From Escherichia phage BEK1-1: DNA of 44,592 nt. Numbering within the stretch: position 1 is the first letter of the stretch; every line of letters starts with the position of its first letter. The notes below the pieces were generated by a model. It searched no databases. It was given only the letters and a program-made list of their open reading frames with translations, and had not been told where the DNA came from. The position numbers and the translations under genes are program-made. The stretch is from the sequence record MN158212.1; one strand, 5' to 3'. Positions 1-44,592 of this stretch are shown here, piece after piece.

Positions 1-40
1 GCTGTAAACCAAGCATTTAGTGTTATAGTTTTCTAACAAG

Positions 41-68
41 AAAGCCCCGAAAGGGGCTTTATCTTTTA
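41..68. terminator. hairpin plus T-run downstream of ssb
   Basis: AAAGCCCC-GAAA-GGGGCTTT followed by ATCTTTTATC on the plus strand. Confidence 0.5.
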
Positions 69-3945: not shown

Positions 3946-4176
3946 ATGAATAACTTCATCAAATCAGCAATCATCGCAGCAGCAGTAATCATGGCAGTTG
4001 GTTGTTCTTCTGGTCCTCGTCCTGATGGTTGGTGTGCAACGTCCTCAAACGGGGTGTGCGTAGCTAAGTGGAAAGGCGGTGTAGTTGTTCCTGCTGGTGA
4101 AATTGACATTCGATACGATGGAATTAAAGGCTCCAGTGGCTCCGTTCGTGATTATGGCTCTAAGGAGTGGAATTAA
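3946..4176 (+). CDS. cor: Cor-like superinfection-exclusion outer-membrane lipoprotein
   Basis: Internal ATG of track ORF 3877..4176; [22 protein letters not shown] = signal peptide plus lipobox; about 76 aa; position next to the tail-tip genes as in T1/phi80-type phages. Confidence 0.65.
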
Positions 4177-5111
4177 TGGCCCAAGGTATATACATAGATC
4201 TTAATGATGGAAGGAATCCAATGACAATTACCGCAGGGATGCGAGCCTTGAACTTTGCTGGAAACTTCAACGTTTCTAGTGGTGGATTTAGTAAGACGTT
4301 CTCAATCCAGGGAAATGAAGGGGCCTCAAGGTTCCTTATCCCTAACAATGGCGCTTATTCATTCGAGCTTGATAGGGGTGTTGAAATTTATTACATAAAT
4401 GGATTTTCATCAACGGCGTCAAGCGGGACTATATCAATTGGTTATGAGAATGGTTATTCTGACCGTATAACTCAATTCTCTGGTACTGTTGTTGAGGTGC
4501 TAAGGGCATCGACTGGACAAGGTATTTATGTTGCGAATAGTACTGATTTTACTTCGATAACCACCACTGACAGGTTGTTGGTGTGCAAGTTTGCCCAGAG
4601 GATATCTTTCACCAACACATACACACTTCCAATTTATGGGATACCATTTGGAAAGTGGAGCAACCCAGGCGTTTCAGTTGAATACAACGGTAGCAACCAA
4701 CTGATATGTACAAACATAAATACTGAAGATACTGGTGACACACCAGGAAGTGTCACTATGGATTTGATTATCTTCCAGATGGTCGCTCCAACCCCTGGTC
4801 CTGGACTTAACATATTTAATTCAAATGGTGCTTGTACGCTATCGACCGTAACTAGGCCATTGGTTGTTTCTGGATTCATAAATCTATCAGGTAGCAACCA
4901 GTACATTGGCGAATCTTACTTCCCAATACTCAGATGTGGATTTAACACAAGGGCAATACGAGCATATAAGGAGTTAAGAAACAAAGGAATTGTAATGAGC
5001 AATGGGTATGTTAGATCTGGCACGGGCTCAAGGATTGTCAGATACGAGATAGGAAATAGGCCTGACGTAACAATATCAACGCCACTTCCTTACCTTCCTG
5101 ATATGTATTAA
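4176..5111 (+). CDS. hypothetical Gly/Ser/Thr/Asn-rich protein (311 aa), possible fibre-like or exclusion protein
   Basis: ATG overlaps the cor stop (TAATG) with AAGGAG RBS; no signal peptide; ends at a bidirectional terminator. Confidence 0.4.
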   Translation: MAQGIYIDLNDGRNPMTITAGMRALNFAGNFNVSSGGFSKTFSIQGNEGASRFLIPNNGAYSFELDRGVEIYYINGFSSTASSGTISIGYENGYSDRITQFSGTVVEVLRASTGQGIYVANSTDFTSITTTDRLLVCKFAQRISFTNTYTLPIYGIPFGKWSNPGVSVEYNGSNQLICTNINTEDTGDTPGSVTMDLIIFQMVAPTPGPGLNIFNSNGACTLSTVTRPLVVSGFINLSGSNQYIGESYFPILRCGFNTRAIRAYKELRNKGIVMSNGYVRSGTGSRIVRYEIGNRPDVTISTPLPYLPDMY

Positions 5112-5115
5112 ATAT

Positions 5116-5141
5116 AAAGCCCCTTTCGGGGCTTTTGTTTT
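5116..5141. terminator. bidirectional intrinsic terminator between convergent genes
   Basis: GCCCC-TTTC-GGGGC with T-runs on both strands. Confidence 0.7.
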
Positions 5142-8100
5142 AGAAAGTACCTACTACAACTCTCCCTCCTCCAGGCAAGTTAACCGTGATTCCGTTTCCG
5201 TTAATCTGTACCGTATTGTTTGTTCCGTTAAAGGCGAATTCACCACTGTTGGCGTACAGTTTGCCGCGAATCTCAGCGTTACCAGACTTATCAATCCTCC
5301 ATCCTGTGCTTCCTGCCACGTAGTTGCTGGACTGAATAAAGTCACCAATCTTCGCGTTAGTAATTGAGCCATCTCCGATTACTGCGCTTTGGATGATTAC
5401 GTTTCCGTTCTCTACAACGAAGGGTAGTTGCCATTGACCGGAGCCAGAACCAATGCCATTACTGATTGCGAATCTGTTTGCGTCAAAAATAAACTGACTG
5501 CGAACATTATCACCAGTGCCAACTAGCTCCATGCTCATGCCGGATGAATAAGTCTGACCATTGTATTTCAGGCCAAGACTAATTCCGTACTGTACACCAG
5601 TTGACGTGGCATTAGAGAAAGCGTCTAACTTCTGGTTTAGAGCCGCCTCGTTTTCGCCAAGTCTTGCTGATAGAGCCGTGTCTGCTGTAGTCCTTGCTTC
5701 TGTCTCTGTGGCTAATGCAGTCTTAACTTCAGTAATCGATGCTACAACTTCATCATCTATCTGCGCTTTAAGGGCCGTTAGAGCCTCTACGCGTGCCTGA
5801 GTTTCATCGGCTATGAGATTCACCGCCTGAACATATTCAGCCTTACGTTTGCCGTTCTCCTTAGTCATGCGACGAACATCAGTGTCATTAGCCAATGCGT
5901 TCTCAAGAATTGACTCTGCCTGATTCTGAATATCCTGATTCTTTTGAATCGCATTCTGCTCCAGGTATTTGAATCCTTCAGAACCCTCAATATCAACCTT
6001 GATGTAATCATTGATAATGTTAGCGTCGTCAGTACTCATGCCTCTAGCAAAATAAGACCAATCAGAGGTATTTCCGATTCTGTCAATCAATCTTGCGCGA
6101 TACCAGATGACCTTACCTGGCTGAATTGGCGTATGCCAGTACTCATAGGCTGGATAAGGTAGTAAAGTCAGCGAGCTTGCGTTATCTGGATTGTAAGTAC
6201 CATCGCCATTATCAGGAACCTGCTGAAGCTCAGTGTAAGCAGTATCACCAGAGCCTTCAGGGAAACCCCACTTAACACGAATGCCGAATACCTCATCTGT
6301 TGATGCCGTGATAACAGTAGGCGCAGATGGGCGACCAATCTTGCCAGTTAGCGATACCGTTACAATGTCAGACCAGGAAGACACGTTTTCAGTATCTGAT
6401 ACGCTGCGAACCCTAACGTCATAGATTCCTGCGTAAATACCTTCGATATCAACCTCTGTGCTAGCTGTTCTGGGTACGTTAATCCAGTTGCCATTCTCTT
6501 TTCTCCACTGAACATTGTAGGTTTTAGCGTATGGAGCTTTATCCCATCCGATAACCATCGTCTCAACCGACAAGCCCTGAACAACCTTGCTATAACTTGA
6601 CACGGTCAAGTTTTCTGGTGGCGACAATCTGTCAGGCTCTACGATTGAAGTCGGGCGGTCAACAATGTTTACGCCATAATCAATCTCGTCATACTTGTTA
6701 GGGTCGTACTCCACTGCTGTAATCGTATACTGGAATGAATCCGATCCATCAGAATCTGCTTTTTGAATCCCGGTCACAACATATTGCTGAAGAGCAAGAT
6801 TGTCCTTATCAATTGCGAACACAGTATCAGGTTGAGCTACAAAGCTAAAAGCAGTATTCAGGTTGATGGTTCTACCGTCTTCCGAAATGCTGGCAATAGT
6901 TCTCGCTTCAGGGCTTCCGTCGGGTTTGTTCAGAAGAATTCTGTCACCTGGAGCTGCGTCAACTTTAAACTGGGTAAAAACCTGCAATCCCTGAACTGAT
7001 TCAATACGACCGGAAAGGTTTAACTGATAGTTACTAGACCATGCCGCGTCATTAACCGCAATGACCTCTCCAATCATCGGAATCATGCCCTCCAACCCAG
7101 TGGTGAAGCTGATAGTTTCGCTTCTCAGGTTGGTTTTCAGGAGCCATCTGCCGCGTCTGTTTGCTTCACTTCTCCGCGTACATCCAATTGCCGTAAGGTC
7201 GACTGGATTAAATCCGAATCTGCGAGTAGCTTCCAGTTCAAATACCGGCTCAACATCCTGCTGATAGTTGTTCTCCACATCATCAAACTGAACGTTCGCC
7301 GTAGTGTAAAGGCTCTTATCACTGGCAAAGGTGCGACTGAACAATCCGTTTACAACGTTATCATTCGTGAAGATGTAAGATGGGTTGCGAGGCTTATCAA
7401 CCACTATACCAATCTTTTCGCCATCATAGAAAGTCAGGCCACGGAAGATTGAGCAGATATCACGAATTAGCGTGTAGGCCTCAACCTTATTCTGTACAAC
7501 CATATCGCACAGGTAGCGCGGCTCCATTCCACCTTTTCCATCAGGAACCATCTGGTCGCAGAATTGCGCAGCCTCGTAAAGACCCCACTTATCAATCTCC
7601 ACGCCCAACTCTCGTTGATCAAGGCCATAGCGACGGTTTGTCACTAAGTCATAAAGAACCCAAGCTGGGTTATTTGACCATGCCATTTTGAACAGTCCAT
7701 TCCATGTTCCGCTGTAAGTTCTTGCTTCCGGGTCGTAGTTGGTTGGGACCTGAATCAGCTTCCAGCGCTTCTTGATAGAGATTGTCGGTATTCCGTTAGG
7801 GAAAAGGTCAGATCCAAACTCAACATAAACCAGAGCCGTAAGCGGATAGCGGAATTTAGCGTCAATTACTTCCTGATAGGTTGTAATCTGCATCCCGTTA
7901 ACCAATGTGCTACTTGTTGAATCCGCTGTAATCTTTCGGATGCGAACCAATGCGCTATCAAATTCAGCCGGAAGGTTCACTCGAATGCTGCGGTCGTAAC
8001 CTGTAGTTGTCTTTCCGTTGGCAACTCCTCGAGTATATTCCTGATAAGCGCCACCATTAACAGAAAGATCAATCGCATACTCGCAGGTTGTTCCGTTCAG

Positions 8101-8511
8101 GTCTCCATTGCTTTCTTGCTTAACCAGTCTAGGCCAATATAGCTTTACACGAATCGCTGATAGCTGAGTATTGTTAACCGCAATGATGTACGGGGTATCG
8201 TTTTTGATTTCCCTGGAGACCTGAACCTCTGAGTTTGCACCATCAAGGCCAGAGATATAGTCCTGATACTGCGTTCCAGGGCGAAACTCAGCCCGAACAC
8301 CTTCGTAGTTGTAGCTACCATCCTGGTTTTGCACCGGAACGTCAGCAAGGTATAAATCCTTCATTGAGAAGTTAGGGTCAACCTCACCATCAGCAACCGC
8401 CAAAAGAACCTTAACCTTGTTAAGTGAAATAAGGTTGTCTTCCTGCTCCACTGGTTGATGCGGCTTCTGACTACCACCCTTAGCACCATAAATCTTAATA
8501 TCTTCAGCCAT
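5140..8511 (-). CDS. tail tip / host-specificity protein (lambda gpJ-like)
   Basis: Track ORF 5140..8550, about 1120 aa from internal ATG (MAEDIKIYGAKGG...) with GAGG RBS; size and position after the I/K/L/M homologues. Confidence 0.8.
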   Translation of the reverse strand: MAEDIKIYGAKGGSQKPHQPVEQEDNLISLNKVKVLLAVADGEVDPNFSMKDLYLADVPVQNQDGSYNYEGVRAEFRPGTQYQDYISGLDGANSEVQVSREIKNDTPYIIAVNNTQLSAIRVKLYWPRLVKQESNGDLNGTTCEYAIDLSVNGGAYQEYTRGVANGKTTTGYDRSIRVNLPAEFDSALVRIRKITADSTSSTLVNGMQITTYQEVIDAKFRYPLTALVYVEFGSDLFPNGIPTISIKKRWKLIQVPTNYDPEARTYSGTWNGLFKMAWSNNPAWVLYDLVTNRRYGLDQRELGVEIDKWGLYEAAQFCDQMVPDGKGGMEPRYLCDMVVQNKVEAYTLIRDICSIFRGLTFYDGEKIGIVVDKPRNPSYIFTNDNVVNGLFSRTFASDKSLYTTANVQFDDVENNYQQDVEPVFELEATRRFGFNPVDLTAIGCTRRSEANRRGRWLLKTNLRSETISFTTGLEGMIPMIGEVIAVNDAAWSSNYQLNLSGRIESVQGLQVFTQFKVDAAPGDRILLNKPDGSPEARTIASISEDGRTINLNTAFSFVAQPDTVFAIDKDNLALQQYVVTGIQKADSDGSDSFQYTITAVEYDPNKYDEIDYGVNIVDRPTSIVEPDRLSPPENLTVSSYSKVVQGLSVETMVIGWDKAPYAKTYNVQWRKENGNWINVPRTASTEVDIEGIYAGIYDVRVRSVSDTENVSSWSDIVTVSLTGKIGRPSAPTVITASTDEVFGIRVKWGFPEGSGDTAYTELQQVPDNGDGTYNPDNASSLTLLPYPAYEYWHTPIQPGKVIWYRARLIDRIGNTSDWSYFARGMSTDDANIINDYIKVDIEGSEGFKYLEQNAIQKNQDIQNQAESILENALANDTDVRRMTKENGKRKAEYVQAVNLIADETQARVEALTALKAQIDDEVVASITEVKTALATETEARTTADTALSARLGENEAALNQKLDAFSNATSTGVQYGISLGLKYNGQTYSSGMSMELVGTGDNVRSQFIFDANRFAISNGIGSGSGQWQLPFVVENGNVIIQSAVIGDGSITNAKIGDFIQSSNYVAGSTGWRIDKSGNAEIRGKLYANSGEFAFNGTNNTVQINGNGITVNLPGGGRVVVGTF

Positions 8512-8557
8512 ATCACAAAGCCTCATGTTTGTTTTGATCATTTGTGCCATTCTACAC

Positions 8558-15065: not shown

Positions 15066-15111
15066 ACTATACAGCAAAACTGAATAAGTGCTTTATCAAA
15101 AAGTGCTATGC
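15066..15111 (-). promoter_or_regulatory. box promoter (variant box, 20 nt, TATAGT, leader AACTCATCGAAACGAAA) upstream of the 82-aa gene
   Basis: Direct reading of the reverse complement. Confidence 0.5.
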
Positions 15112-24860: not shown

Positions 24861-24938
24861 TGGCGCTCCGCACTGGATTCGAACCAGTAACCTACGACTT
24901 AGAAGGTCGTTGCTACTATCCTATTGAGCTAGCAGAGC
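24861..24938 (-). tRNA. tRNA-Arg (anticodon UCU)
   Basis: Minus strand reads GCTCTGC...TAGCTCAATAGGATAG...ACGACCTTCTAAGTCGT...CTGGTTCGAATCCAG...GCGGAGC-G-CCA; acceptor stem pairs 7/7 (one G-U); anticodon loop CT-TCT-AA; T-loop GGTTCGAATCC. Confidence 0.85.
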
Positions 24939-25919: not shown

Positions 25920-25965
25920 ATTATATGCCATCCATGGCGACTGCGTTTAGCAATTCGTGCTATTT
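25920..25965 (-). promoter_or_regulatory. box promoter (AAATAGCACGAATTGCTAAA, 20 nt, TATAAT)
   Basis: Direct reading of the reverse complement. Confidence 0.55.
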
Positions 25966-34739: not shown

Positions 34740-34786
34740 ATTATGCCGCATTTCTACGGCATTAGTTAGGCAAAAAGTGCTATTTA
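34740..34786 (-). promoter_or_regulatory. box promoter, half-box variant (AAATAGCAC..., 20 nt, CATAAT, leader ACCACATCGAAACGAG)
   Basis: Direct reading of the reverse complement. Confidence 0.45.
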
Positions 34787-35265
34787 CCGTGCCTCTCTGT
34801 GAATTCTGGGTTACCCTCGTAAACTGACTTCGCATATGATACTGCTTCTTCTTTTGTGTAGAAGGTTTTGTAAACCCTGTTTTTATCAATCTGAATTTGA
34901 ACAAGCCACGGCTTTCCATCCCTTTTTATCTTATTTATGAAGTAAACACCTGTAACTCCTGATGTGTTATCCTTTCTCATAGCTGCATTCTTGCAGTTAA
35001 CCCATCTATCTACGCATCTCAAATTCTCTATCCGATTATCGTGCTTAACTCCATTAATGTGATCGATTTCCATACCTTTAGGGACTTCTCCGTTATGCAT
35101 TTCCCATATTACTCGATGGGCAAAAGTCATCTTTGAAAACAGTTTAGTCCTAACGTACCCCCTCAAATCAATATACCCAGCCTTAACTCCGTTATAAGAT
35201 GATACCCTGTGGTTCTTTCTGTACAAATCACCATTTGAATATTCGTAATAATCGTGCCAATTCAT
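34780..35265 (-). CDS. HNH homing endonuclease with AP2-like DNA-binding domain
   Basis: ...AHRVIWEMH...EIDHINGVKHDNRIENLR... (HNH) and ...SGVTGVYF...KPWLVQI...KTFYTKEEA... (AP2-like). Confidence 0.7.
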   Translation of the reverse strand: MNWHDYYEYSNGDLYRKNHRVSSYNGVKAGYIDLRGYVRTKLFSKMTFAHRVIWEMHNGEVPKGMEIDHINGVKHDNRIENLRCVDRWVNCKNAAMRKDNTSGVTGVYFINKIKRDGKPWLVQIQIDKNRVYKTFYTKEEAVSYAKSVYEGNPEFTERHGK

Positions 35266-35293
35266 TTCAATCTCCTCTCGTTTCTATAAAACA

Positions 35294-35339
35294 ATAATAG
35301 CCGCTTTCGCGGCTACTGTTTTAACAAAAGGTGCTATTA
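35294..35339 (-). promoter_or_regulatory. box promoter, variant, with hairpin TAGCCGC-GAAA-GCGGCTA inside the 20-nt spacer
   Basis: Direct reading; the hairpin may also terminate transcripts from the upstream phosphoesterase gene. Confidence 0.4.
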
Positions 35340-36491
35340 GTATTTGGATCCAGGGTTTGCGTCACGAAGCATTTCAACAGGAATGCTCACTCGACTAACT
35401 TCTCCATACTTCTTGTGATACGTAATAACGTTTGCACTACGCCCAGAGAAGTACCCGCCCTTGGATGAGTACTCATCTTTTGCAGCAAGTGTCTGGTGTT
35501 GCTCAATAATCATCAAGCTAGTTTCCTTAACCGCTCTGTGGTGCAGGTGGCCTAGGTGCGTGTATGCGAACTTGGATTTACCAAACATCTCACGATACTT
35601 AGCAATTATTGCTGATTCAACTCTGGAGAAGTTAGCGCAATGCCCGTGATGCATGGCAATCATAACGTCTCCAAATTCATATGCGTAGTAAGGGGAAACT
35701 TCGCGATTCACTTCAACTCGCTCATTTTCAATAAATACTTCATGAAACATCTCGCGCAACCATAATGAAGATACCGGGTTGTGATTTCCCTCACAAATCA
35801 ATAGCTTAACCTTTTTATGTTTAACCAGGCACATGCTTATGGCTGCCTTGATTAATTTAATCTGAGTCCGAATCATTCGGAATAATCTAGTATCAGCAGA
35901 AAGAATGTGACCACTCATTGGGGTTACAGCTTTCATTGAGTCGTAGTGAGCCTCATCCCCTAAAAAGTTAATTATGCATTCATCGCTGTTCGGGCTCATT
36001 GCCACGGCGCTGCTGAACCAGTCCAATGCTAATTTCTCAGCAATCTTGGTGTCATAATTGTCACCACCTTCCTCTGCGCAAGCAAGCATTCCAATGTGAT
36101 GGTCTGTGATGGTGTAGAGGTTGAGAATGTCAGAATTAGTTATCTCACCTGAGTGGTTAACAGCATCGTACTTAGGTAGCTCTTTCTTAAGCTCCTCAAC
36201 AACAATTTGCATCAGCTCTTGCTGTCGCTCCTTGTCAACTTCTGATTTAACCCACTGACCTTTAATCTCACCATCGGCACCAATTAAGCTAGACACACCT
36301 TTGACAGCGTAACCTTGAGGAATTAGGTTGCTTACATCACGGCCGTGCCCCTCACCCCGTTTTGCCAGCTTACTACGACGCAATTCAACGTTGCGAATGT
36401 TCATTCCGTACTTCTCTGCGATTGCCTTGTTGGTCATTCCATTCGCCAGCTCTTCGCGTAGTTGTTCGTTGGTGATTTTTGCAGTTGCCAT
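35337..36491 (-). CDS. calcineurin-like metallophosphoesterase with N-terminal helix-turn-helix domain
   Basis: N-terminal ...MTNKAIAEKYGMNIRNVELRR... (HTH-like); phosphoesterase-like motifs ...ITDHHIG..., ...GDEAH..., ...EGNHN..., ...MHHGH..., ...GHLHH... Confidence 0.55.
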   Translation of the reverse strand: MATAKITNEQLREELANGMTNKAIAEKYGMNIRNVELRRSKLAKRGEGHGRDVSNLIPQGYAVKGVSSLIGADGEIKGQWVKSEVDKERQQELMQIVVEELKKELPKYDAVNHSGEITNSDILNLYTITDHHIGMLACAEEGGDNYDTKIAEKLALDWFSSAVAMSPNSDECIINFLGDEAHYDSMKAVTPMSGHILSADTRLFRMIRTQIKLIKAAISMCLVKHKKVKLLICEGNHNPVSSLWLREMFHEVFIENERVEVNREVSPYYAYEFGDVMIAMHHGHCANFSRVESAIIAKYREMFGKSKFAYTHLGHLHHRAVKETSLMIIEQHQTLAAKDEYSSKGGYFSGRSANVITYHKKYGEVSRVSIPVEMLRDANPGSKY

Positions 36492-36574: not shown

Positions 36575-36832
36575 TCATTCAACTTCTTTCAACCAGTAGT
36601 CAATCAAATCAGCACTAATTGCTAATTTCTGGTCAAGGTCAGTCATACAAAGGTCTCCGCATGCTGGGGAGTAGTAAATCTGAACCCACTTCCCGTCTTT
36701 AGTTTTTGCGTTCACATCCACATAATCTGGAGGAAACCAGTCAGAGATGGGTATCGCTCTAAACTTTGCACCACTTTGACCATATACTAAATCGTAATGA
36801 TCTGGCTGAAAATCTAAACCCAACATACTCAA
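36575..36832 (-). CDS. hypothetical protein (85 aa)
   Basis: ORF; ATGA-type overlap with the upstream gene. Confidence 0.35.
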   Translation of the reverse strand: MSMLGLDFQPDHYDLVYGQSGAKFRAIPISDWFPPDYVDVNAKTKDGKWVQIYYSPACGDLCMTDLDQKLAISADLIDYWLKEVE

Positions 36833-37420: not shown

Positions 37421-37662
37421 TATTCTGATACCTCATCAAATTTTTCGCCAAATGCGTTTTTAACAGTTTCCAGGTCATCTTTGTAAGTCGGGCTAACTTC
37501 GAAAGCATAACCCTCACCATCGTCAAGAACATAGCCATCAGGGGTGATTACCAATTCATACTCATAACCAGTTTTGCGTGATTCGTAGAATTTTCCAGTG
37601 TAGATAGTAGCCATTTTGTTTCTCTCTCTGTGTTTCGTTTCGATGGAGTAACTATACCCCAA
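37420..37662 (-). CDS. hypothetical protein (80 aa)
   Basis: ORF with box promoter upstream. Confidence 0.4.
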   Translation of the reverse strand: MGYSYSIETKHRERNKMATIYTGKFYESRKTGYEYELVITPDGYVLDDGEGYAFEVSPTYKDDLETVKNAFGEKFDEVSE

Positions 37663-37696
37663 TCTTTAAAATCGTCTTTAGCAATTCGTGCTATTT
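37651..37696 (-). promoter_or_regulatory. box promoter (AAATAGCACGAATTGCTAAA, 20 nt, TATAGT, leader ACTCCATCGAAACGAAA)
   Basis: Direct reading of the reverse complement. Confidence 0.55.
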
Positions 37697-38110
37697 TGAA
37701 ATCATTTCTTCAAATGCTGCCAGGAAGCCCTCTCTACCGTAGGCAACTCCAGCGAAACCTCCTGATTCTCTCACGCTTTTAAGGAAGGACTTCTGTTCGT
37801 CACTGACTGGACTAGCTTGAGTTTTTCCCGCCCTCTTTAGCTCTATGGCCCCAAAAGGGTACTTTCCTCTAAGTGATTCAGGTATCAGGAATAAGCAGTC
37901 CGAAACCCCCTTAAGCAATCCTTTGGCCTGGTCCTTCCTTGCTTGTCCAATGGTCTTCTTACCCTCATTCACGCAGTGGAAAAATACCATCTCTGGATAG
38001 TTATACTTAACCCAATCAGAGCAAAAGATTTGTTCGTCATCCTCTTTCGGGCATGACTTAACCGGGCCAGGGTAAAACTCAATGTAATCAACTTTGTCTG
38101 TAATGTTCAT
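37691..38110 (-). CDS. VRR-NUC domain nuclease
   Basis: ...GVSDCLFLIPE...GAIELKRAGKTQASPVSDEQKSFL...GGFAGVA fits the VRR-NUC PD-(D/E)XK pattern; coupled to the helicase gene. Confidence 0.6.
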   Translation of the reverse strand: MNITDKVDYIEFYPGPVKSCPKEDDEQIFCSDWVKYNYPEMVFFHCVNEGKKTIGQARKDQAKGLLKGVSDCLFLIPESLRGKYPFGAIELKRAGKTQASPVSDEQKSFLKSVRESGGFAGVAYGREGFLAAFEEMISK

Positions 38111-40101
38111 AACAATTCTCCAAAATTCTTAAAAGCTATTATATCATTTCCTTTGCCATTCTTGCGGTGTGTCACCTGGACTGGCGCACGAAACTTATCT
38201 GCGTTAGTCATAATCATTCTGGCATTCTTCAGTCTGCCAATTCGTGCTGCTTCAGCTCGATTTTCAATGTGAGCAAGGCAAAAGTTTTTCCAAAGCACAC
38301 TACAAACCCTGTGGTCAGATTCTGGATTGAAGAACTCCCAAGCATTAAACCGCTCTCCGTTGTGCGCCATGATATTGTACTTAACAACAATTCCCGTTTG
38401 GTTCTTACTTAAGCCAACCTGAAAATCATAAACACGAAGGTAATCACCACGTCGATACATTTTTCCAGTAAGATTGGCATTCGGGTCTTTAAGCATTTCT
38501 CCGCATTCACGACAAACTTTTGCTGCTATGTCATTTTTAGTTCCACAACCTTTCTTGATTACCGCCTTTGTTTGTTGGTCGGTAATATCATCACATGTCG
38601 TGAACTGGAAAAAGTGATCGCATCTAACACCATCAATCTTATTGCTACAGCGTCTAGCAAATGGCGAGTTCTCATATCCACATTTCGGACACTGGCGAAC
38701 CTCATCACCACCTTTTCTTGAGGATTTAAACTTCTCAGCCTGAATCTCCTCAATTATTGGGTCAAAGTAAAGCTCTGCCATGTCATCAAGCGCCCCGGCA
38801 AAGTCTAATACCAAGTGGTCCTCCTTCTTGAACCCAGCATCTATGTGCGCCTTTTTTAGTTTTCGCATGCCACGACCAAGAAGCTGAATCATTAAGGTTA
38901 TACTGCCAATCTTGCGTAGTATGACGCTAGTATCCCACAGTGGTTGGTTTACGCCCGTGGTTAGACATCCAATCTGAAAGATAATCTTGTACTTTCCAGT
39001 CTGGCAATCAGCAAGAATCTCCCTGCGCTTCTTCTCCCCCGTAGAATCAGTAATGATAGCGTAAGGGTATCCATCTGGGAGTGCCTCGGCGGCTTCATCA
39101 CAATGTAGTTTGCCAGCGCATGTTACCAATGCGGCATTGCGAGTCTCAAGTATTTTTACAACAAAACCCATTATCTTTTGAGTCATGGATTGGTTGTCGT
39201 GAATCTTTGCAGCCATTGCGTCCATTTCTTTCTTGCTGAAATCCTTCACGCCATCGCTTCCGTCTGGCGCAAACTCACTAAGGTCATAACCAAGGTCACC
39301 AACCTCGCCGTAAACAGTTGGTACCACGAATCCCAAATCAACAAGGTAATTTGTTGGAACCTGAATCACAGTTTTTCGCCAGAACCCACGGATGTTTGGA
39401 TTGCTAACGACGATATGGTCATTATTTCGATAAGGGCTACCAGTAAGGCCGAATATACGAAGCTCCCGCCCGTATTTTTCACGGCAGCGACGCTTCATCT
39501 CAGTGATTATTAACGTGTACTGCGCGCGACCAGTGCCAAGCAACCCTGTGTTTACGCCATCCTTAAAAACCATCTCGCCTTTCTTTGTGCTCATCTGCTC
39601 AAATGTTTCTTCATTCTCTTCGGCTTCCACGATATCCATGTGATCGACCATGTGGCATTCATCTATAGCTATAACGGCAGGAACATAGTCACCAAGCCCC
39701 TTAAACAAGCCGTTAGCTGCCGTGCCCTCACTAGCAACTATGGTTGGGTAGTAAACTGATTTAACGTTAAGTCCGGCGCAATAGACGCTGTTGCGGATGC
39801 CGAAATTACGAAGTTCTTCTGAGTTCTGGCTTATTATCTCTGACTGGCGAGAAAGAACCATGTAAGGCAACCCTAATTGCTCCATTCGCTTTCCAATCAT
39901 GGCGAGAATGATTGTCTTACCAGCAGATACTGAAAGGTCTGCGATAAATGGGGCCTCGTACTTCCCAATAGCCTTTCCGATAGCATCAAATGTAACGCAC
40001 TGGAACTCGTAAGGAGTTATCTCTCCAAACTGATAATCTTTCTGAATCTGTTTAATTCTTTCTTTATCAAAGTTTGCAACCTGCTTCTCGATAGGCAACA
40101 T
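38107..40101 (-). CDS. DExH-box (SF2) helicase with C-terminal Cys-rich zinc-ribbon region
   Basis: Motif I-like ...SVSAGKTIIL..., motif II ...IDECHMV...; C-terminal ...CPKCGYEN...C...C... cluster. Confidence 0.7.
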   Translation of the reverse strand: MLPIEKQVANFDKERIKQIQKDYQFGEITPYEFQCVTFDAIGKAIGKYEAPFIADLSVSAGKTIILAMIGKRMEQLGLPYMVLSRQSEIISQNSEELRNFGIRNSVYCAGLNVKSVYYPTIVASEGTAANGLFKGLGDYVPAVIAIDECHMVDHMDIVEAEENEETFEQMSTKKGEMVFKDGVNTGLLGTGRAQYTLIITEMKRRCREKYGRELRIFGLTGSPYRNNDHIVVSNPNIRGFWRKTVIQVPTNYLVDLGFVVPTVYGEVGDLGYDLSEFAPDGSDGVKDFSKKEMDAMAAKIHDNQSMTQKIMGFVVKILETRNAALVTCAGKLHCDEAAEALPDGYPYAIITDSTGEKKRREILADCQTGKYKIIFQIGCLTTGVNQPLWDTSVILRKIGSITLMIQLLGRGMRKLKKAHIDAGFKKEDHLVLDFAGALDDMAELYFDPIIEEIQAEKFKSSRKGGDEVRQCPKCGYENSPFARRCSNKIDGVRCDHFFQFTTCDDITDQQTKAVIKKGCGTKNDIAAKVCRECGEMLKDPNANLTGKMYRRGDYLRVYDFQVGLSKNQTGIVVKYNIMAHNGERFNAWEFFNPESDHRVCSVLWKNFCLAHIENRAEAARIGRLKNARMIMTNADKFRAPVQVTHRKNGKGNDIIAFKNFGELL

Positions 40102-40149
40102 ATCTGAATTCCTATAAAAATTGTCTTGTAGCGTTTAATTGAGTACAAT

Positions 40150-40191
40150 ATTACCATCAAATCATGATGACTTTTAACAAAAAATGCTATT
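40150..40191 (-). promoter_or_regulatory. box promoter, half-box variant, upstream of the helicase gene
   Basis: CAATAGCATTTTTTGTTAAA, 20 nt, AATATT on the reverse complement. Confidence 0.35.
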
Positions 40192-40202
40192 GAGGTAATA
40201 AG

Positions 40203-40688
40203 ATGAATGCAGTCGACAAGCGAACCATTAACGGTAATAACGGAACCATCCGCACTGAAGACAAAAAGCAACGGAAACGACCTTCAGGTTACTACGTTTT
40301 GAAAGATGAGGTAAGGGCGGGTTTACGTGCGCGGCTGGAAATTGTTCTTGATTTCTTCGGCACAAAGGCAAATATGGCAAAGCAATTAAAGGTAACACCA
40401 CAGGCTGTAGAGGAATGGTTTAAGCGCGGCATGATTTCTGCGCGCGGGGCTCAACTCTCACACAACTACTACAAGCGAACCGGGGAAGGCTTTCGCGCCA
40501 CATTCTGCCGACCAGATCTGCAATTCGACGGCAACGGCAAGCCTCTTACTCTACGTTGCAAAAAGCGTCACATGCTGCGTGTTGTTACTGAGGCTGAATT
40601 AGCCACCAAGCCAGAGTGTCGATCATGGCGCAAGATTAAGGAAGAGAATCGCAAAAAGCGAGAAGCAGAGAAAAATAGCACGAATTGA
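40203..40688 (+). CDS. putative HTH DNA-binding regulator (161 aa)
   Basis: ...FGTKANMAKQLKVTPQAVEEWFKRGMIS... resembles a Cro/CI-type helix-turn-helix; basic N- and C-termini. Confidence 0.45.
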   Translation: MNAVDKRTINGNNGTIRTEDKKQRKRPSGYYVLKDEVRAGLRARLEIVLDFFGTKANMAKQLKVTPQAVEEWFKRGMISARGAQLSHNYYKRTGEGFRATFCRPDLQFDGNGKPLTLRCKKRHMLRVVTEAELATKPECRSWRKIKEENRKKREAEKNSTN

Positions 40689-40725
40689 TAAACAATGGCG
40701 CTATGCATTGTGTATAGTGCCTTTA
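40673..40725 (+). promoter_or_regulatory. box promoter (AAATAGCACGAATTGATAAA, 20 nt, TATAGT) upstream of the second HNH gene
   Basis: The box overlaps the last codons (NSTN-stop) of the HTH gene. Confidence 0.5.
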
Positions 40726-40738
40726 TTGTTTATGGAGG

Positions 40739-41269
40739 GTGTATATGAAAGTTAATGATTTTGTTTATGTTGATGATGAATTTAAATTAAGATGGAAGAG
40801 TAGAGGTGTTGAATTCTTCAAAACAGAGAGGTCATCAAAGATCTGGAATAGTAGGTTTGCAAACAAGGAATGTGGATACATTAGGGATGACGGCTATCTT
40901 TCTTTTGAGTTCAATGGTCGAGCATACAGAAATCACAGGGTGATATGGGAAATTGTAACTGGTAATGAAATAGATGATAACATGGAGATTGACCATATAG
41001 ATCATAATACAACAAACAACAATACTGAAAACCTTAGACTTGTTGACAGGAAAGAGAATTGCAAAAACCAATCCATGATGCCCCATAACTCGAGTGGCTT
41101 CACAGGTGTTCACTGGTGGTCAGCAAGAAACAAATGGAGAGCCCGCATCGAATGTGATGGCAGAGTGAAAACAAAAACATTTGAAGACTTTAATGACGCC
41201 GTCGAGTGGAGAAAAGAAATGAACATAAATCTTGGCTTTCACAAGAATCATGGAGATAAGAAAAAATGA
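40739..41269 (+). CDS. HNH homing endonuclease with AP2-like domain (paralogue of 34780..35265)
   Basis: ...YRNHRVIWEI...EIDHIDHNTTNNNTENLR... and ...SGFTGVHW...KWRARIECDGRVKTKTFEDFNDAVEW... Confidence 0.7.
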   Translation: MYMKVNDFVYVDDEFKLRWKSRGVEFFKTERSSKIWNSRFANKECGYIRDDGYLSFEFNGRAYRNHRVIWEIVTGNEIDDNMEIDHIDHNTTNNNTENLRLVDRKENCKNQSMMPHNSSGFTGVHWWSARNKWRARIECDGRVKTKTFEDFNDAVEWRKEMNINLGFHKNHGDKKK

Positions 41270-42189
41270 AATTTTATGATAAGAAAGAGGTATTGCCAAG
41301 AATGATGGGGATGTGGAAGGATGCCCTCATAAACATTTGTGATGCGCCTGAGAGCTTCTTTAATGGCAAGCACCAGCCATGCCTATATTGTGGAGGTCGG
41401 GATCGGGCTAGATGGACTGATAACCTATCTATAAAAGGTGACGGCGGAAATATATGCAATCAGTGCGGAAACGACACTGGAATAGGGTTGATGATGAGGC
41501 TTACTGGAATGAACTACAATGAGGCCATAAATGTATTAGGTGACTGGCTCAACCTTATACCTACAGAGGCTATATCAAAAGCAAACAAAAGAGCTTCAAG
41601 AACATCACCATACAAAATGGGAGCACAGATCGACCACGAAAGATGCCTGGAGATAATGGAAAGAACTGAAAGAGTAGAATCAACCCCACTCAGCACATAT
41701 GAGGGTATCTATAGTGAGTTTGGTTTTGATGTTGGCAGGACAAAATCAGGCGAACTAATACACGCAATACCGTGTTTTATGGCTTATAGTGACGGCATAT
41801 CGGAAGAAATGTGCAATGTAATGTTTATCAATGAAGATGGAGATGTTAGTTATGCTGCAAAAGATTATACTCGCCAATCTGTCGCTGTTATTGGTGCCTT
41901 TAAAAGTGATGAGTACGCTTATCTGGTCGATAATCTCATTGACGGCTATCGTGTTCACATTGCTACTGGGAGCCGCTGTGTGCTTGTTTGCTACTCTAGT
42001 TACAACATGGAAATGGTTGCTTATGCGCTTAGAAACCACAAGCTGAGAGTGGCTTGTACTCGCCACGATTTTGATTTACTCGCCGTTGCTGATGATCGCA
42101 ATCTTGATGTGGTAATGCCAAATGATGATAATTTTTTCAAGTCAGGCATAAGAAAGCGAATATACAAAGCAAGCGAATTACTAGACTAA
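41266..42189 (+). CDS. putative DNA primase (N-terminal Zn-ribbon)
   Basis: ...CLYCGGRDRARW...CNQCGN... resembles the primase zinc-ribbon; lies next to the helicase block; ATGA overlap with the HNH gene. Confidence 0.5.
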   Translation: MKFYDKKEVLPRMMGMWKDALINICDAPESFFNGKHQPCLYCGGRDRARWTDNLSIKGDGGNICNQCGNDTGIGLMMRLTGMNYNEAINVLGDWLNLIPTEAISKANKRASRTSPYKMGAQIDHERCLEIMERTERVESTPLSTYEGIYSEFGFDVGRTKSGELIHAIPCFMAYSDGISEEMCNVMFINEDGDVSYAAKDYTRQSVAVIGAFKSDEYAYLVDNLIDGYRVHIATGSRCVLVCYSSYNMEMVAYALRNHKLRVACTRHDFDLLAVADDRNLDVVMPNDDNFFKSGIRKRIYKASELLD

Positions 42190-42211
42190 CCTCCTTCGGT
42201 AGGTTTTTTTA
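42188..42211 (+). terminator. intrinsic terminator after the primase gene
   Basis: AACCTCC-TTCG-GTAGGTT followed by TTTTTTT. Confidence 0.65.
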
Positions 42212-42276
42212 TGCCTGAAAGATGATACAATCCAATTTAGCAATTCTTGCTATTTTACAAATGGAGACTTTACACA

Positions 42277-44592
42277 ATGGCAATTTATGACTTAGGAACC
42301 GCCTCGCTGGCCGCAAATGGCGAGGTAACTGGCGTGGGGACAACATGGAAAGCACCTCTTACACTGATCAGGGTTGGTGCAACTATCATTTTTAAAACTA
42401 ACCCACTAAAAATTTACACCATCTCTGAAATCATCAGTGATACGCAGATTAATGTTTACAATCCTAATTCTGAAACAGTTCCGGCTGGTACGGGTTATGC
42501 GATTCTTGCGCACGATGGTATTACGGTTCAGGGTTTGGCTCAGGATGTTGCGGAGACACTTCGTTATTATCAGAGCAAGGAAACTAGCATTCAGAGCCTT
42601 CTTGATTTCATTGGTCAAGATTCTTTTGACTGGCCTAGATTCGAACAATTAGCAAAGCAGTCAGTAACAGGTGCTGCCGAGGCTTTAGCTAGCCAGATTG
42701 TCGCAGCAGAGAGCGCCGCTACTGCTGTTAGTGCAAGAAACATAACTACAGCCGCAAGAGATGCAACTATCGCGGCCATTGATAGCGCTGGGGACGCGGG
42801 TACTATGGTTGCTCTCGCCGGGATGGGAATTAGCGGAACAACGCCACTTCTAACATCGCTTGACTGGGATACATTTAATTTCAACTCTGGCTCTCGTTAC
42901 CTATGCCGGGTATCATCGATGACCAACGCCCCGGAGGTGATAACATCAACCTTCCCATCTGAGGCAGTTTGCATAATTGAAGTGAAATCAAACAGAGGGA
43001 TCAATGGTCAGAAAAACTTCCAGATTTCAGCAAACACGTCATCTGATAACCTGTACAGGGTCATTGACTTAAACCAGATTGTAACGGGCGGTGTGCGCTC
43101 CTATGTATCTAGGGAGGCTCTGTATGTTGCTTCTGGCTCTAATGCTGGTGGCGCAAGCGCAGAACGAGTAAGGGGGTTGCTTGATGTTTATTCAAAAAAT
43201 GAGACTTTTCAAAAATCATTGAATTTCTCTGACGTTGAAAATAAAGCCACAGCAAGAAATAATCTTGATGTTTACTCAAAGTTAGACATTAACTCAAGAG
43301 ATGGCTATTCAACTAATCTTGCGGAAGTTACTTCAGGGCTATCAAGCGGTATGGCAACTATATCTAAGTCCTTGGTTATCTCCGATGGGCTTTCGGTGCC
43401 TTCATTTGCTGAAATATCAGGCGATAAAAACTTTAGGGCTGGTTTTATTGGAGTTGATTATAGAAAGAACAAGACGATAAGGAAAAGTTCAAACTCTACA
43501 GTTACATTATCAAATCAGGATTCCAACGCAGGCAGTCAGGTTGTTGACGCAGTTCTTTACCAGGACCCAGCGTGGCCTTTTGCTTCTGTTTACCCGCAGA
43601 AGACAACAATAAAAAATCTAACAATTGAGGGTAACTCGGCTGCAAGCAAGAATCAGGCAGCGATTTACATCCTACAGGCAGGCGTTGCTGAAATTGATGG
43701 CGTAGATACTATTAACTGTAAGTATTCAGTGTGGTCAAAGGATATTTTTCAGACGCGCATTAATCGCGTTTTCTCTAACGACGGAAAGATAAGGCTGGAT
43801 AACGGAACATCAGTTGTGATTTCTAACTGCGGGCTTGCATCATCAGACACGGAGAGAACTGGAGCCTTTGACCTTACCGGAATGAAGTACTCAACAATGA
43901 TTAGCTGCACTTCAGACCACACGACAAATACCGCTTATTCAATCAATGCGTGTGAGGGTTTAAGCATGATTTCATGTGGGTGTGAAGCATCAGGAACAAC
44001 TACACCAAATTCAGGAACGGCGATTGCATTTAGGGATAACAATAGGAATATCTTTGTTAGTGGATTCTCATGCTTACCTGTACCAGATCAAGGGCCTGCA
44101 TTGGTTAGCTTCGGATCTAACAATGATATCAACCTTACTAACTTTCAAGTCATACCAGGAATAAACTACTCATCTGACTTCTATATTGCTGGCCCTGGAA
44201 ACAACATCGTTATCAATGGCGGTCGTTTTGGGCGTTCTGGCGGCTTGATGCCTGTTGTGACAGCTAGTGGAAGCGCAATTGGATCAAGGATTACATACAA
44301 CGCATCAAACGGCGTAACTTATGATTACGTAGTTTCCGCGCCTGGAGTTGTAAATCCAGTGCCGAGAAAAAGCGCAATAACTTCTATTCTAGTAAATGCT
44401 GAAGGTAATGTGATTAGAGGGTCCGGGGCTTCATGCGTGAGAGAGGCTAATGGAACGTACCTTGTAACTCTTGATTATTCAAATGGAATTACTGGCGCAT
44501 CAGTTGATTTGTATGGTTACATTGGTTTATCTTCATTTGTGTTTGTTGATAACAACAAGATTAGGGTTAGCGTAACAAATACAGGAGGAACA
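42277..44592 (+). CDS. tail fibre / tailspike-like protein, 3'-truncated by the window end
   Basis: Frame checked open over 42277..43200 and 43201..44592 by manual translation (at least 772 codons); N-terminus MAIYDLGTASLAANGEVTGVGTTW...; C-terminal part Gly/Ser/Asn/Thr-rich with repetitive short beta-strand-like segments. Confidence 0.5.
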   Translation, partial: MAIYDLGTASLAANGEVTGVGTTWKAPLTLIRVGATIIFKTNPLKIYTISEIISDTQINVYNPNSETVPAGTGYAILAHDGITVQGLAQDVAETLRYYQSKETSIQSLLDFIGQDSFDWPRFEQLAKQSVTGAAEALASQIVAAESAATAVSARNITTAARDATIAAIDSAGDAGTMVALAGMGISGTTPLLTSLDWDTFNFNSGSRYLCRVSSMTNAPEVITSTFPSEAVCIIEVKSNRGINGQKNFQISANTSSDNLYRVIDLNQIVTGGVRSYVSREALYVASGSNAGGASAERVRGLLDVYSKNETFQKSLNFSDVENKATARNNLDVYSKLDINSRDGYSTNLAEVTSGLSSGMATISKSLVISDGLSVPSFAEISGDKNFRAGFIGVDYRKNKTIRKSSNSTVTLSNQDSNAGSQVVDAVLYQDPAWPFASVYPQKTTIKNLTIEGNSAASKNQAAIYILQAGVAEIDGVDTINCKYSVWSKDIFQTRINRVFSNDGKIRLDNGTSVVISNCGLASSDTERTGAFDLTGMKYSTMISCTSDHTTNTAYSINACEGLSMISCGCEASGTTTPNSGTAIAFRDNNRNIFVSGFSCLPVPDQGPALVSFGSNNDINLTNFQVIPGINYSSDFYIAGPGNNIVINGGRFGRSGGLMPVVTASGSAIGSRITYNASNGVTYDYVVSAPGVVNPVPRKSAITSILVNAEGNVIRGSGASCVREANGTYLVTLDYSNGITGASVDLYGYIGLSSFVFVDNNKIRVSVTNTGGT

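Follow-up and report, generated by a model that had tools for sequence, protein, structure and literature searches.

The DNA analyzed here is a stretch of 44,592 nucleotides (nt) from Escherichia phage BEK1-1 (sequence record MN158212.1), referred to below as the window; its source is a T1-like phage of the Drexlerviridae (Braunvirinae). Near the right-hand end of the window, on the plus strand, lies the gene for a lateral (side) tail fiber or tailspike of a T1-like coliphage, a gene of an ordinary and already described kind, and just before it stands a 20-bp box in inverted orientation. The same box recurs through the genome as a promoter element, and in sequence this T1-family promoter element matches the consensus binding site (marbox) of the host stress regulators MarA, SoxS, and Rob. 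The fiber open reading frame (ORF) starts with an ATG at 42277 and, as had been predicted for a frame of more than 770 codons, stays open to the window end, for 772 codons. When the end of the window is joined to its start, the frame wraps over the junction and runs 11 codons more (1..36, plus strand) to a TAA at 34-36, giving a gene at 42277..44592 joined to 1..36 and a full protein of 783 amino acids (aa); the frame does close soon after the window end, within 11 codons, but with a fiber-like domain present. The joined C terminus (...VTNTGGT before the junction, AVNQAFSVIVF and the stop after it) agrees with that of a 789-aa homologue from Escherichia phage vB_EcoS-12210I (12210I below), so the window is an entire genome, circularly permuted and cut within the fiber gene, and features near either end are to be read across the junction between 44592 and 1. 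The nearest relatives are Veterinaerplatzvirus phages, with 94% nucleotide and protein identity across the fiber gene. A strong hairpin terminator (38..65; -14.7 kcal/mol, z score -3.96) follows the stop, between the convergent fiber gene and recombination genes.

Upstream, the fiber frame begins just past the primase terminator, as originally proposed. The DNA primase gene (41266..42189, plus strand; stop codon at 42187-42189) lies directly upstream of the fiber gene and ends in an intrinsic terminator made up of a hairpin and then seven T (42188..42210, plus strand; fold -5.4 kcal/mol, z score -0.9). The hairpin is weak in this phage because one stem base differs, a G-to-T change with respect to all close relatives (CGGTAGG versus CGGGAGG), which have a perfect CCTCC/GGAGG stem, and read-through from primase into fiber may be higher here. 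Past the terminator, an extended -10 promoter of the sigma-70 type, TGaTACAAT (42223..42231, plus strand; hexamer at 42226-42231), has no box upstream of it, and a Shine-Dalgarno GGAG (42263..42266, plus strand) lies 10 nt upstream of the ATG; both were read directly from the sequence. Between them sits the marbox-like box, a putative operator with the sequence TTTAGCAATTCTTGCTATTT (42236..42255), which on the minus strand reads AAATA-GCAAGAATTGCTAAA. It is 20 bp long, starts 4 nt after the extended -10, and stops 21 nt short of the ATG, in line with the roughly 20 nt first reported. If transcription starts 7 nt past the -10, as we assume, the box spans about -2 to +18. The original prediction had also held that the space after the box is too short for a spacer, -10, and leader, and indeed no -10 hexamer lies 20 nt beyond the box on either strand.

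At three or fewer mismatches, the window carries 11 copies of TTTAGCAATTCTTGCTATTT, against 0.01 expected from shuffled sequences. Ten of the 11, oriented with their genes, read AAATAGCAC(G/T/A)AATTGCTAAA, and the reading of the box in the direction of the gene is ATA-GCAC(T/G)AATTGCTAAA. Exactly 20 nt past the gene-oriented boxes is a TATAAT-like hexamer without a -35, and most copies then have a conserved leader, taccccATCGAAACGA, ahead of the ribosome-binding site and start codon. A looser pattern finds 23 boxes in the window, 15 of them with TAnnnT at N19-21, and results are similar in phages ACG-M12, 12210I, Rtp, and T1; together with this phage, these genomes carry about 15 to 20 promoters each in the form of a box, ATAGCACnnnTTGnTAAA, followed by 20 nt and a TATAAT-like hexamer. 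Normal copies in the window include those at 40673..40692 (plus strand; N20 and TATAGT, driving in its own direction the HNH gene at 40739-41269), at 37677..37696 (minus strand; AAATAGCACGAATTGCTAAA, N20, TATAGT, and then tactccATCGAAACGA), and at 25946..25965 (minus strand; N20, TATAAT), with others at 1243, 3105, 3865, 26736, 27860, 28366, and 30727; variant copies are found at 15092, 30087, 34765, and 35319. One more variant, ATAGCATTTTTTGTTAAA (40173..40190, minus strand), is placed to drive the helicase gene, and the ACG-M12 and T1 helicase genes have equivalent boxes in front of them. About 12 to 25 nt past many of the box-linked -10s, the initial transcribed sequence is also conserved and reads (t)accccATCGAAACGA (e.g., 37630-37645, minus strand); it is present in Rtp, ACG-M12, and T1 as well and may provide start-site context, a leader element, or a processing site. 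A 21-nt direct repeat, aaATAGCACnnnTTGnTAAAA, is known from TLS, T1, Rtp, and Rogue1 through the work of German, Kropinski, and colleagues, and its function is listed as an open question (PMC11447400); the options offered in the TLS paper are a stoperator, an enhancer, or an UP element, and the repeats are stated to follow the direction of transcription (PMC11447400).

The 15-mer GCACTAATTGCTAAA of the box is the consensus marbox, given as 5'-gcactaattgctaaa-3' in the methods of a MarA regulon paper (PMC5684230): three window copies (3110, 3870, and 30732) match it at 15/15 positions and most others at 14/15. A frequency matrix of 80 promoter-linked box copies, taken from five genomes (this phage, ACG-M12, 12210I, Rtp, and T1), agrees with every specified marbox position. 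G4 is present in 80/80 copies and its symmetric partner C14 in 51/80, an asymmetry that suits a monomer with a pair of helix-turn-helix (HTH) motifs and not a symmetric dimer. The classical 19-mer form of the marbox, AYnGCACnnWnnRYYAAAY (AYNGCACNNWNNRYYAAAY), reportedly goes back to Martin et al. 1999; at no more than one mismatch this pattern occurs 14 times in the window, against 1.07 expected, and the fiber box matches it at 18/19 positions, with GCAA in place of GCAC. The geometry of the promoters can be compared as well. On the class II promoter micF, cryo-electron microscopy places the GCAC of the Rob site at -47..-44 and the end of its B site at -33 (PMC9178005), and a phage box followed by N20 and a hexamer at -12..-7 stands in exactly this register, again with a start point assumed 7 nt past the -10. 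Class II marbox promoters have a forward site overlapping the -35 position and no -35 hexamer (PMC10268841), and about 15 promoter copies in the window share this geometry (forward, -47..-33, without a -35 hexamer). A host monomer of the MarA/SoxS/Rob type is, on these sequence grounds, the most likely box-binding factor. No AraC-type domain was found among 28 window ORFs scanned with Pfam, a set of nonstructural ORFs of about 80 aa or longer. The accessible literature yielded the TLS description of the repeat but no paper that connects marboxes to T1-like phages or gives the box a function; an earlier mention elsewhere is possible.

A near-consensus marbox, GCACTAATTGCTAAT, also occurs within a coding region (36612-36626, plus strand), antisense to the gene and with no -10 after it. 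The same is seen in four phages in all, with the counterparts at 37851-37865 in ACG-M12, 39125-39139 in Rtp, and 36039-36053 in 12210I; coding constraint or an internal binding site could account for it.

The serious rival to a host factor is a box-binding protein encoded by the phage, with the marbox match a product of coincidence or mimicry. This protein could be the product of an unrecognized small ORF or the Cro-like, single-HTH regulator encoded at 40203..40688 (plus strand; phrog_2856, "transcriptional regulator"), a homologue of T1 gp23 and Rtp52, and it would switch on the box promoters while repressing its own promoter and damping that of the fiber gene. The conserved regulator gene heads a regulator-primase-fiber string in every family member, and its sigma-70 promoter, located by promoter scan (TTGTCT-17-TACAAT at 40121-40149), overlaps the box-driven helicase promoter on the opposite strand in what looks like an autoregulatory arrangement, the inferred helicase -10 (about 40148-40153) coinciding in part with that of the regulator (40144-40149). 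The box is also partly palindromic (TAGCA-N5-TGCTA), with a perfect 5-bp palindrome in 39/80 copies, and its third position is conserved beyond the marbox consensus. However, a single Cro-type HTH normally binds symmetric operators, whereas this site is asymmetric and not consistently palindromic, and a 15/15 match to the marbox combined with a base-pair-exact class II register would be hard to reach by chance. We consider a phage-encoded factor unlikely on balance, while giving it more weight than any of the other alternatives discussed below. The overlapping regulator and helicase promoters look, in their own right, like a mutually exclusive early-to-middle switch.

Inverted, 4 nt past the -10, and with no -10 at N20 on either strand, the copy at the fiber gene is not arranged for activation of class I or class II. 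An inverted fiber-proximal copy is present in all five complete genomes; in T1, the promoter at this place is TTGCAA-N17-TAAAAT. We compared 72 distinct primase-fiber intergenic regions, consisting of 71 IMG/VR contigs and the window. In 62/72, a TGnTAnnnT motif stands no more than 75 nt from the ATG, and the other 10 have TTGCAT-N17-CATAAT. The inverted box, in the same place and orientation, is found in 40/72 lineages. The gap from the -10 to the box is 4 nt in 15 regions, 5 nt in 14, and 10 nt in 10, and the box ends 15 to 25 nt before the ATG. Eleven specificity positions (2-6, 11-13, and 15-17) are invariant in 40/40 of these copies. Only at the base closest to the -10, the final A of the B site, do the fiber copies vary freely (A in 15, G in 13, T in 12); 76/80 promoter copies have A there. 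Since the box persists with invariant specificity positions amid flanking sequences that cannot be aligned between subfamilies, it is under selection as a protein-binding site at a place where activation is impossible. The gaps of 4 to 5 and of 10 nt put the box on opposite faces of the helix, which fits steric hindrance better than a face-specific contact. The original prediction had suggested that the box might act as a repressor-type operator, a reading that is plausible given how well position and conservation fit it, and we infer that the fiber box is an operator-like site.

These comparisons bear on the possibility that the fiber-proximal box has no regulatory role and is instead a leftover of promoter duplication, a decoy, or a block of recombination homology at a module border. 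The box adjoins a recombination-prone gene, repeated promoter boxes would make plausible recombination joints, and 32/72 lineages have a promoter without it. Such a relic would not be expected to persist across subfamilies whose flanks cannot be aligned, to keep 11 specificity positions unchanged in 40/40 copies, or to stay within a restricted distance of the -10; as for recombination, the conserved 5' 380 nt of the fiber gene already offer far more homology. We judge a box without function to be distinctly unlikely.

Two further readings take the box as part of a different transcript or as RNA. It had been suggested that the box might belong to a minus-direction promoter, whose RNA would be antisense to the primase 3' end, and its orientation on the minus strand is indeed that of the genuine promoters. 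The hexamer 20 nt downstream is GGCATA here, TACCTG in T1, and TGCGCA in another lineage, none with the A2 and T6 of a -10, and no lineage examined has a minus-strand -10 after the box; the promoter scan was negative at the site, and there is no minus-strand gene downstream. This suggestion is scarcely credible and was dropped. Alternatively, the box could act as a 5'-terminal hairpin (UAGCA-loop-UGCUA) of the fiber mRNA and affect stability or translation, as the predicted start falls inside the box and the transcript would begin with its palindromic core, with a fold of -4.2 kcal/mol. That fold is no better than those of shuffled sequences (z score -0.89), and a GTTAA variant in 11/40 copies breaks the central pair without compensation while the DNA specificity positions stay invariant, making a role as RNA very unlikely.

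We favor a reading in which the fiber gene has its own activator-independent sigma-70 promoter, with an extended -10 just past the primase terminator. A box-binding factor, most probably of the host MarA/SoxS/Rob type, would switch on the other box promoters as a class II activator, and the same factor, sitting on the inverted fiber box across the start point, would occlude or damp the fiber promoter. The overlap of regulator and helicase promoters could then be a second case in which occupancy of a box site works against a box-independent promoter. Repression by MarA at marboxes that overlap the core promoter has reportedly been described for purA, hdeA, and rob (Schneiders et al., 2004 and 2006). 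Taken whole (a mosaic tailspike with its own sigma-70 promoter, a host MarA/SoxS/Rob-type factor on the boxes, and the inverted fiber copy as operator), we give this account an even chance. The broader proposition that T1-like phages run most of their transcription from marbox class II promoters through host Rob, MarA, SoxS, or RamA, with the inverted site damping the fiber gene, is suggested by the sequences somewhat more tentatively, at a little less than even.

The analysis shows what kind of gene this is, how its protein is pieced together and folds, and how promoter and box are arranged and conserved. Where transcription of the fiber gene begins, which factor binds, and whether it represses are the parts that we infer, and the weakest links are which factor it is and in which direction it acts. 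Several observations weigh against our favored account. The fiber start point is an assumption, placed 7 nt past the -10. Among the 40 fiber-proximal copies, the one in the window is the only case of GCAA (at 42247, position 7), so that it may bind poorly and may represent a recent weakening of the site, and 32/72 lineages, the Webervirus-like ones included, lack the inverted box. A conserved phage HTH regulator is encoded two genes upstream of the fiber gene, and the overlap between its promoter and that of the helicase gene resembles a classic phage-encoded switch. The third box position is A in 77/80 copies, more conserved than the host consensus requires, and this extra conservation could point to a dedicated phage factor. 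There is no obvious rationale for repressing one structural gene with the activator of other structural genes. Unstressed cells contain little MarA or SoxS, and most Rob is sequestered, which would make dependence of a virulent phage on them surprising, and we found no host-factor report in support of such dependence.

The protein encoded by the fiber gene is a mosaic. It falls in PHROG tail-fiber families (phrog_24092, 8e-150), and a Pfam search returned nothing, even at E of ≤1. Its conserved N-terminal anchor (virion attachment) domain (aa 1-128; 42277..42660, plus strand) is 81% identical to that of Rtp50 and 44% identical to that of T1 gp26, and tblastn found residues 1 to ~128 at the start of fiber genes in 907 phage records (Drexlerviridae fiber genes). 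Residues 1 to 181 match the PDB "Depolymerase" chains 7VYV, 7VZ3, and 7LZJ (E about 1e-32). An Ala-rich helical neck and then a middle domain (aa 129-344; 42661..43308, plus strand) are common only to ACG-M12-type fibers, and aa 1-358 show 71% identity with ACG-M12 gp31. The remainder is a tailspike receptor-binding module, consisting of a right-handed beta-helix and a C-terminal beta domain (aa 345-772; 43309..44592, plus strand, continuing into 1-36). Over aa ~345-780 it has 50 to 56% identity with uncharacterized tailspikes, which bear either PF18668 or, on ~40-kb contigs, PF09008, the head-binding domain of P22; the lateral tail fiber of the phi92-like phage PaulScherrer is among these tailspikes. 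In the T1-like fiber P0001, a diverged anchor is joined straight to the same C-terminal module, without residues 129-310. The module spanning aa ~345-783 is a beta-helix tailspike module gained by horizontal exchange.

An AlphaFold2 monomer model of aa 331-772 has a predicted local distance difference test (pLDDT) score of 82.6 and all-beta secondary structure. Its top Foldseek matches in the PDB are the tailspikes 6eu4, 6c72, 2vbe, and 6w4q (probability 1.00, template modeling [TM] score 0.4 to 0.54), the best being Acinetobacter AS12 gp42, Fri1 gp49, Sf6, and CBA120 TSP2, with HK620 and P22 lower; nearly all of the 18 PDB matches at E of ≤0.001 are tailspikes or depolymerases. Identity to solved tailspikes is only 8 to 14%. 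The family alignment contains invariant D, E, and C residues. The module most likely recognizes a surface polysaccharide such as O-antigen, which it probably cleaves or modifies. The original prediction of a tail fiber or tailspike is thus borne out by the PHROG families, the tblastn fiber matches, and a beta-helix model that resembles tailspikes, and its attachment domain in the N-terminal 150 aa corresponds to a conserved attachment-type domain over ~125 to 180 aa. The idea of a swappable host-range module agrees with the clear mosaic joints in the sequence comparisons. The remainder of the protein had been described as Gly/Ser/Asn-rich with short repetitive segments. The composition of aa 151-783 stands, with moderate enrichment (Ser, 12.6%; Gly, 9.3%; Asn, 8.8%), and the repetitive segments come down to one motif: BLAST self-comparison of the protein detected no internal repeat, and by eye a short motif, ...R..L(L)DVYSK, is seen twice, at about aa 297-335, near the module joint.

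The gene order around the fiber gene is that of the family. The regulator gene heads a regulator-(HNH)-primase-fiber string, and the records of T1, Rtp, ACG-M12, and 12210I agree on the regulator-primase-fiber order, on the other strand from the tail genes and convergent with the recombination genes; the equivalents are gp23-gp24-gp26 in T1, rtp52-rtp51-rtp50 in Rtp, and gp29-gp30-gp31 in ACG-M12. The primase (phrog_510, 7.5e-96; Pfam Zn_Ribbon_Prim) is syntenic with T1 gp24 and Rtp51. The RefSeq note on rtp50 describes a putative tail fiber with a beta-helix fold whose similarity to T1 gp26 is confined to the N-terminal region, and the BASEL paper describes a hypervariable lateral tail fiber locus between the recombination and primase/helicase genes in which the 5' end alone is conserved (PMC8594841). 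A tail fiber protein of ~124 kDa was detected by mass spectrometry in JK06-like phages, with the one of two fiber genes left unspecified (PMC4070988). The fiber gene had first been described as lying far from the tail block, its separation from the J-like gene being taken to suggest a swappable host-range module. On the circle, the two genes converge, and the fiber stop (window position 36) is about 5.1 kb from the 3' end (5140) of the J-like gene (5140-8550); the ~34-kb gap is an artifact of where the record was cut, and the placement is the family norm (T1, Rtp; PMC8594841) and no peculiarity of this phage.

Among the neighboring genes, the regulator gives weak Pfam matches to P22_Cro and YdaS at aa 48-80, and its AlphaFold2 model (pLDDT 87.9) has the all-alpha Cro proteins of Xfaso-1 and N15 as its best PDB folds (3bd1, 6on0). 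With a single HTH and no AraC-, MarA-, or Rob-like fold match, it was rejected as a mimic of MarA. The HNH endonuclease gene at 40739-41269 is an insertion that separates the regulator gene from the primase gene, and the closest relative, 12210I, lacks it. A second HNH endonuclease gene lies at 34780-35265, and both have their own marbox-type promoters (40673-41269, 34780-35337); the first fits the usual pattern of a mobile homing endonuclease that brings along a promoter of the resident type. A Rha-family regulatory protein (PF09669; 3223-3870, plus strand) and a DUF6453 protein (4167-5111, plus strand) are encoded in the interval that separates the recombination genes from the J-like gene. 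The DUF6453 protein, at the receptor-binding-protein locus beside the J-like gene, corresponds to Rtp rtp44. These two genes are each downstream of a 15/15 consensus marbox promoter. The genome also has a tRNA-Arg(tct) gene (24861-24938, minus strand), shared with 12210I and ACG-M12.

At the level of the gene, the exchangeable tailspike, the regulator-primase-fiber synteny, and the hypervariable C terminus have all been published. The tailspike sets primary host range in T1-like phages and is of use for the prediction and engineering of host range. That the box is identical to the consensus marbox is the only finding here that might surprise specialists, and it makes the question left open in 2024 about the 21-nt repeat (PMC11447400) directly testable. 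If the broader proposition on T1-like phages is true, that question would be answered: a virulent phage would be using host stress activators as a promoter-specificity factor, only at the fiber promoter would the same site have a negative effect, and phage gene expression and the dosage of the host-range fiber would be tied to host stress and bile signals.

Compared with known fibers, the gene corresponds to the Drexlerviridae lateral fiber locus (T1 gp26 FibA, Rtp rtp50, ACG-M12 gp31) in site, strand, an N terminus of ~125 aa, and an exchangeable C terminus. This allele combines a neck and middle of the ACG-M12 type with a module otherwise found in P22-like and phi92-like phages, and the closest fiber is that of Veterinaerplatzvirus (94%). 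It has the N-terminal domain and the overall tailspike architecture in common with the Drexlerviridae-type depolymerase 7VYV/7VZ3/7LZJ but no detectable sequence similarity to it past aa ~181, and therefore carries a different receptor-binding module. Tailspikes of the P22, Sf6, HK620, and CBA120 type share the fold of aa ~345-783, a module that in this protein is joined to a siphovirus anchor domain.

The box and the 21-nt repeat of the TLS paper are the same element, with the same consensus, intergenic position, and co-orientation with genes; that paper does not mention an inverted copy at the fiber promoter or a match to the marbox (PMC11447400). The class II marbox promoters of Escherichia coli and Salmonella (micF; MarA/SoxS/Rob/RamA) share sequence, orientation, the missing -35, and register with the phage promoters, which differ from them in belonging to a virulent phage genome and in their number, about 15 to 20 near-consensus copies per 45 kb. 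The fiber copy, inverted and downstream of the -10, corresponds to neither the class I nor the class II arrangement. Its nearest parallel is in the cases of MarA repression said to occur at purA, hdeA, and rob, where a backward marbox on the core promoter leads to repression, as proposed here for the fiber copy; those sites reportedly overlap the -35 region or the spacer, whereas the fiber box lies over +1 to +18.

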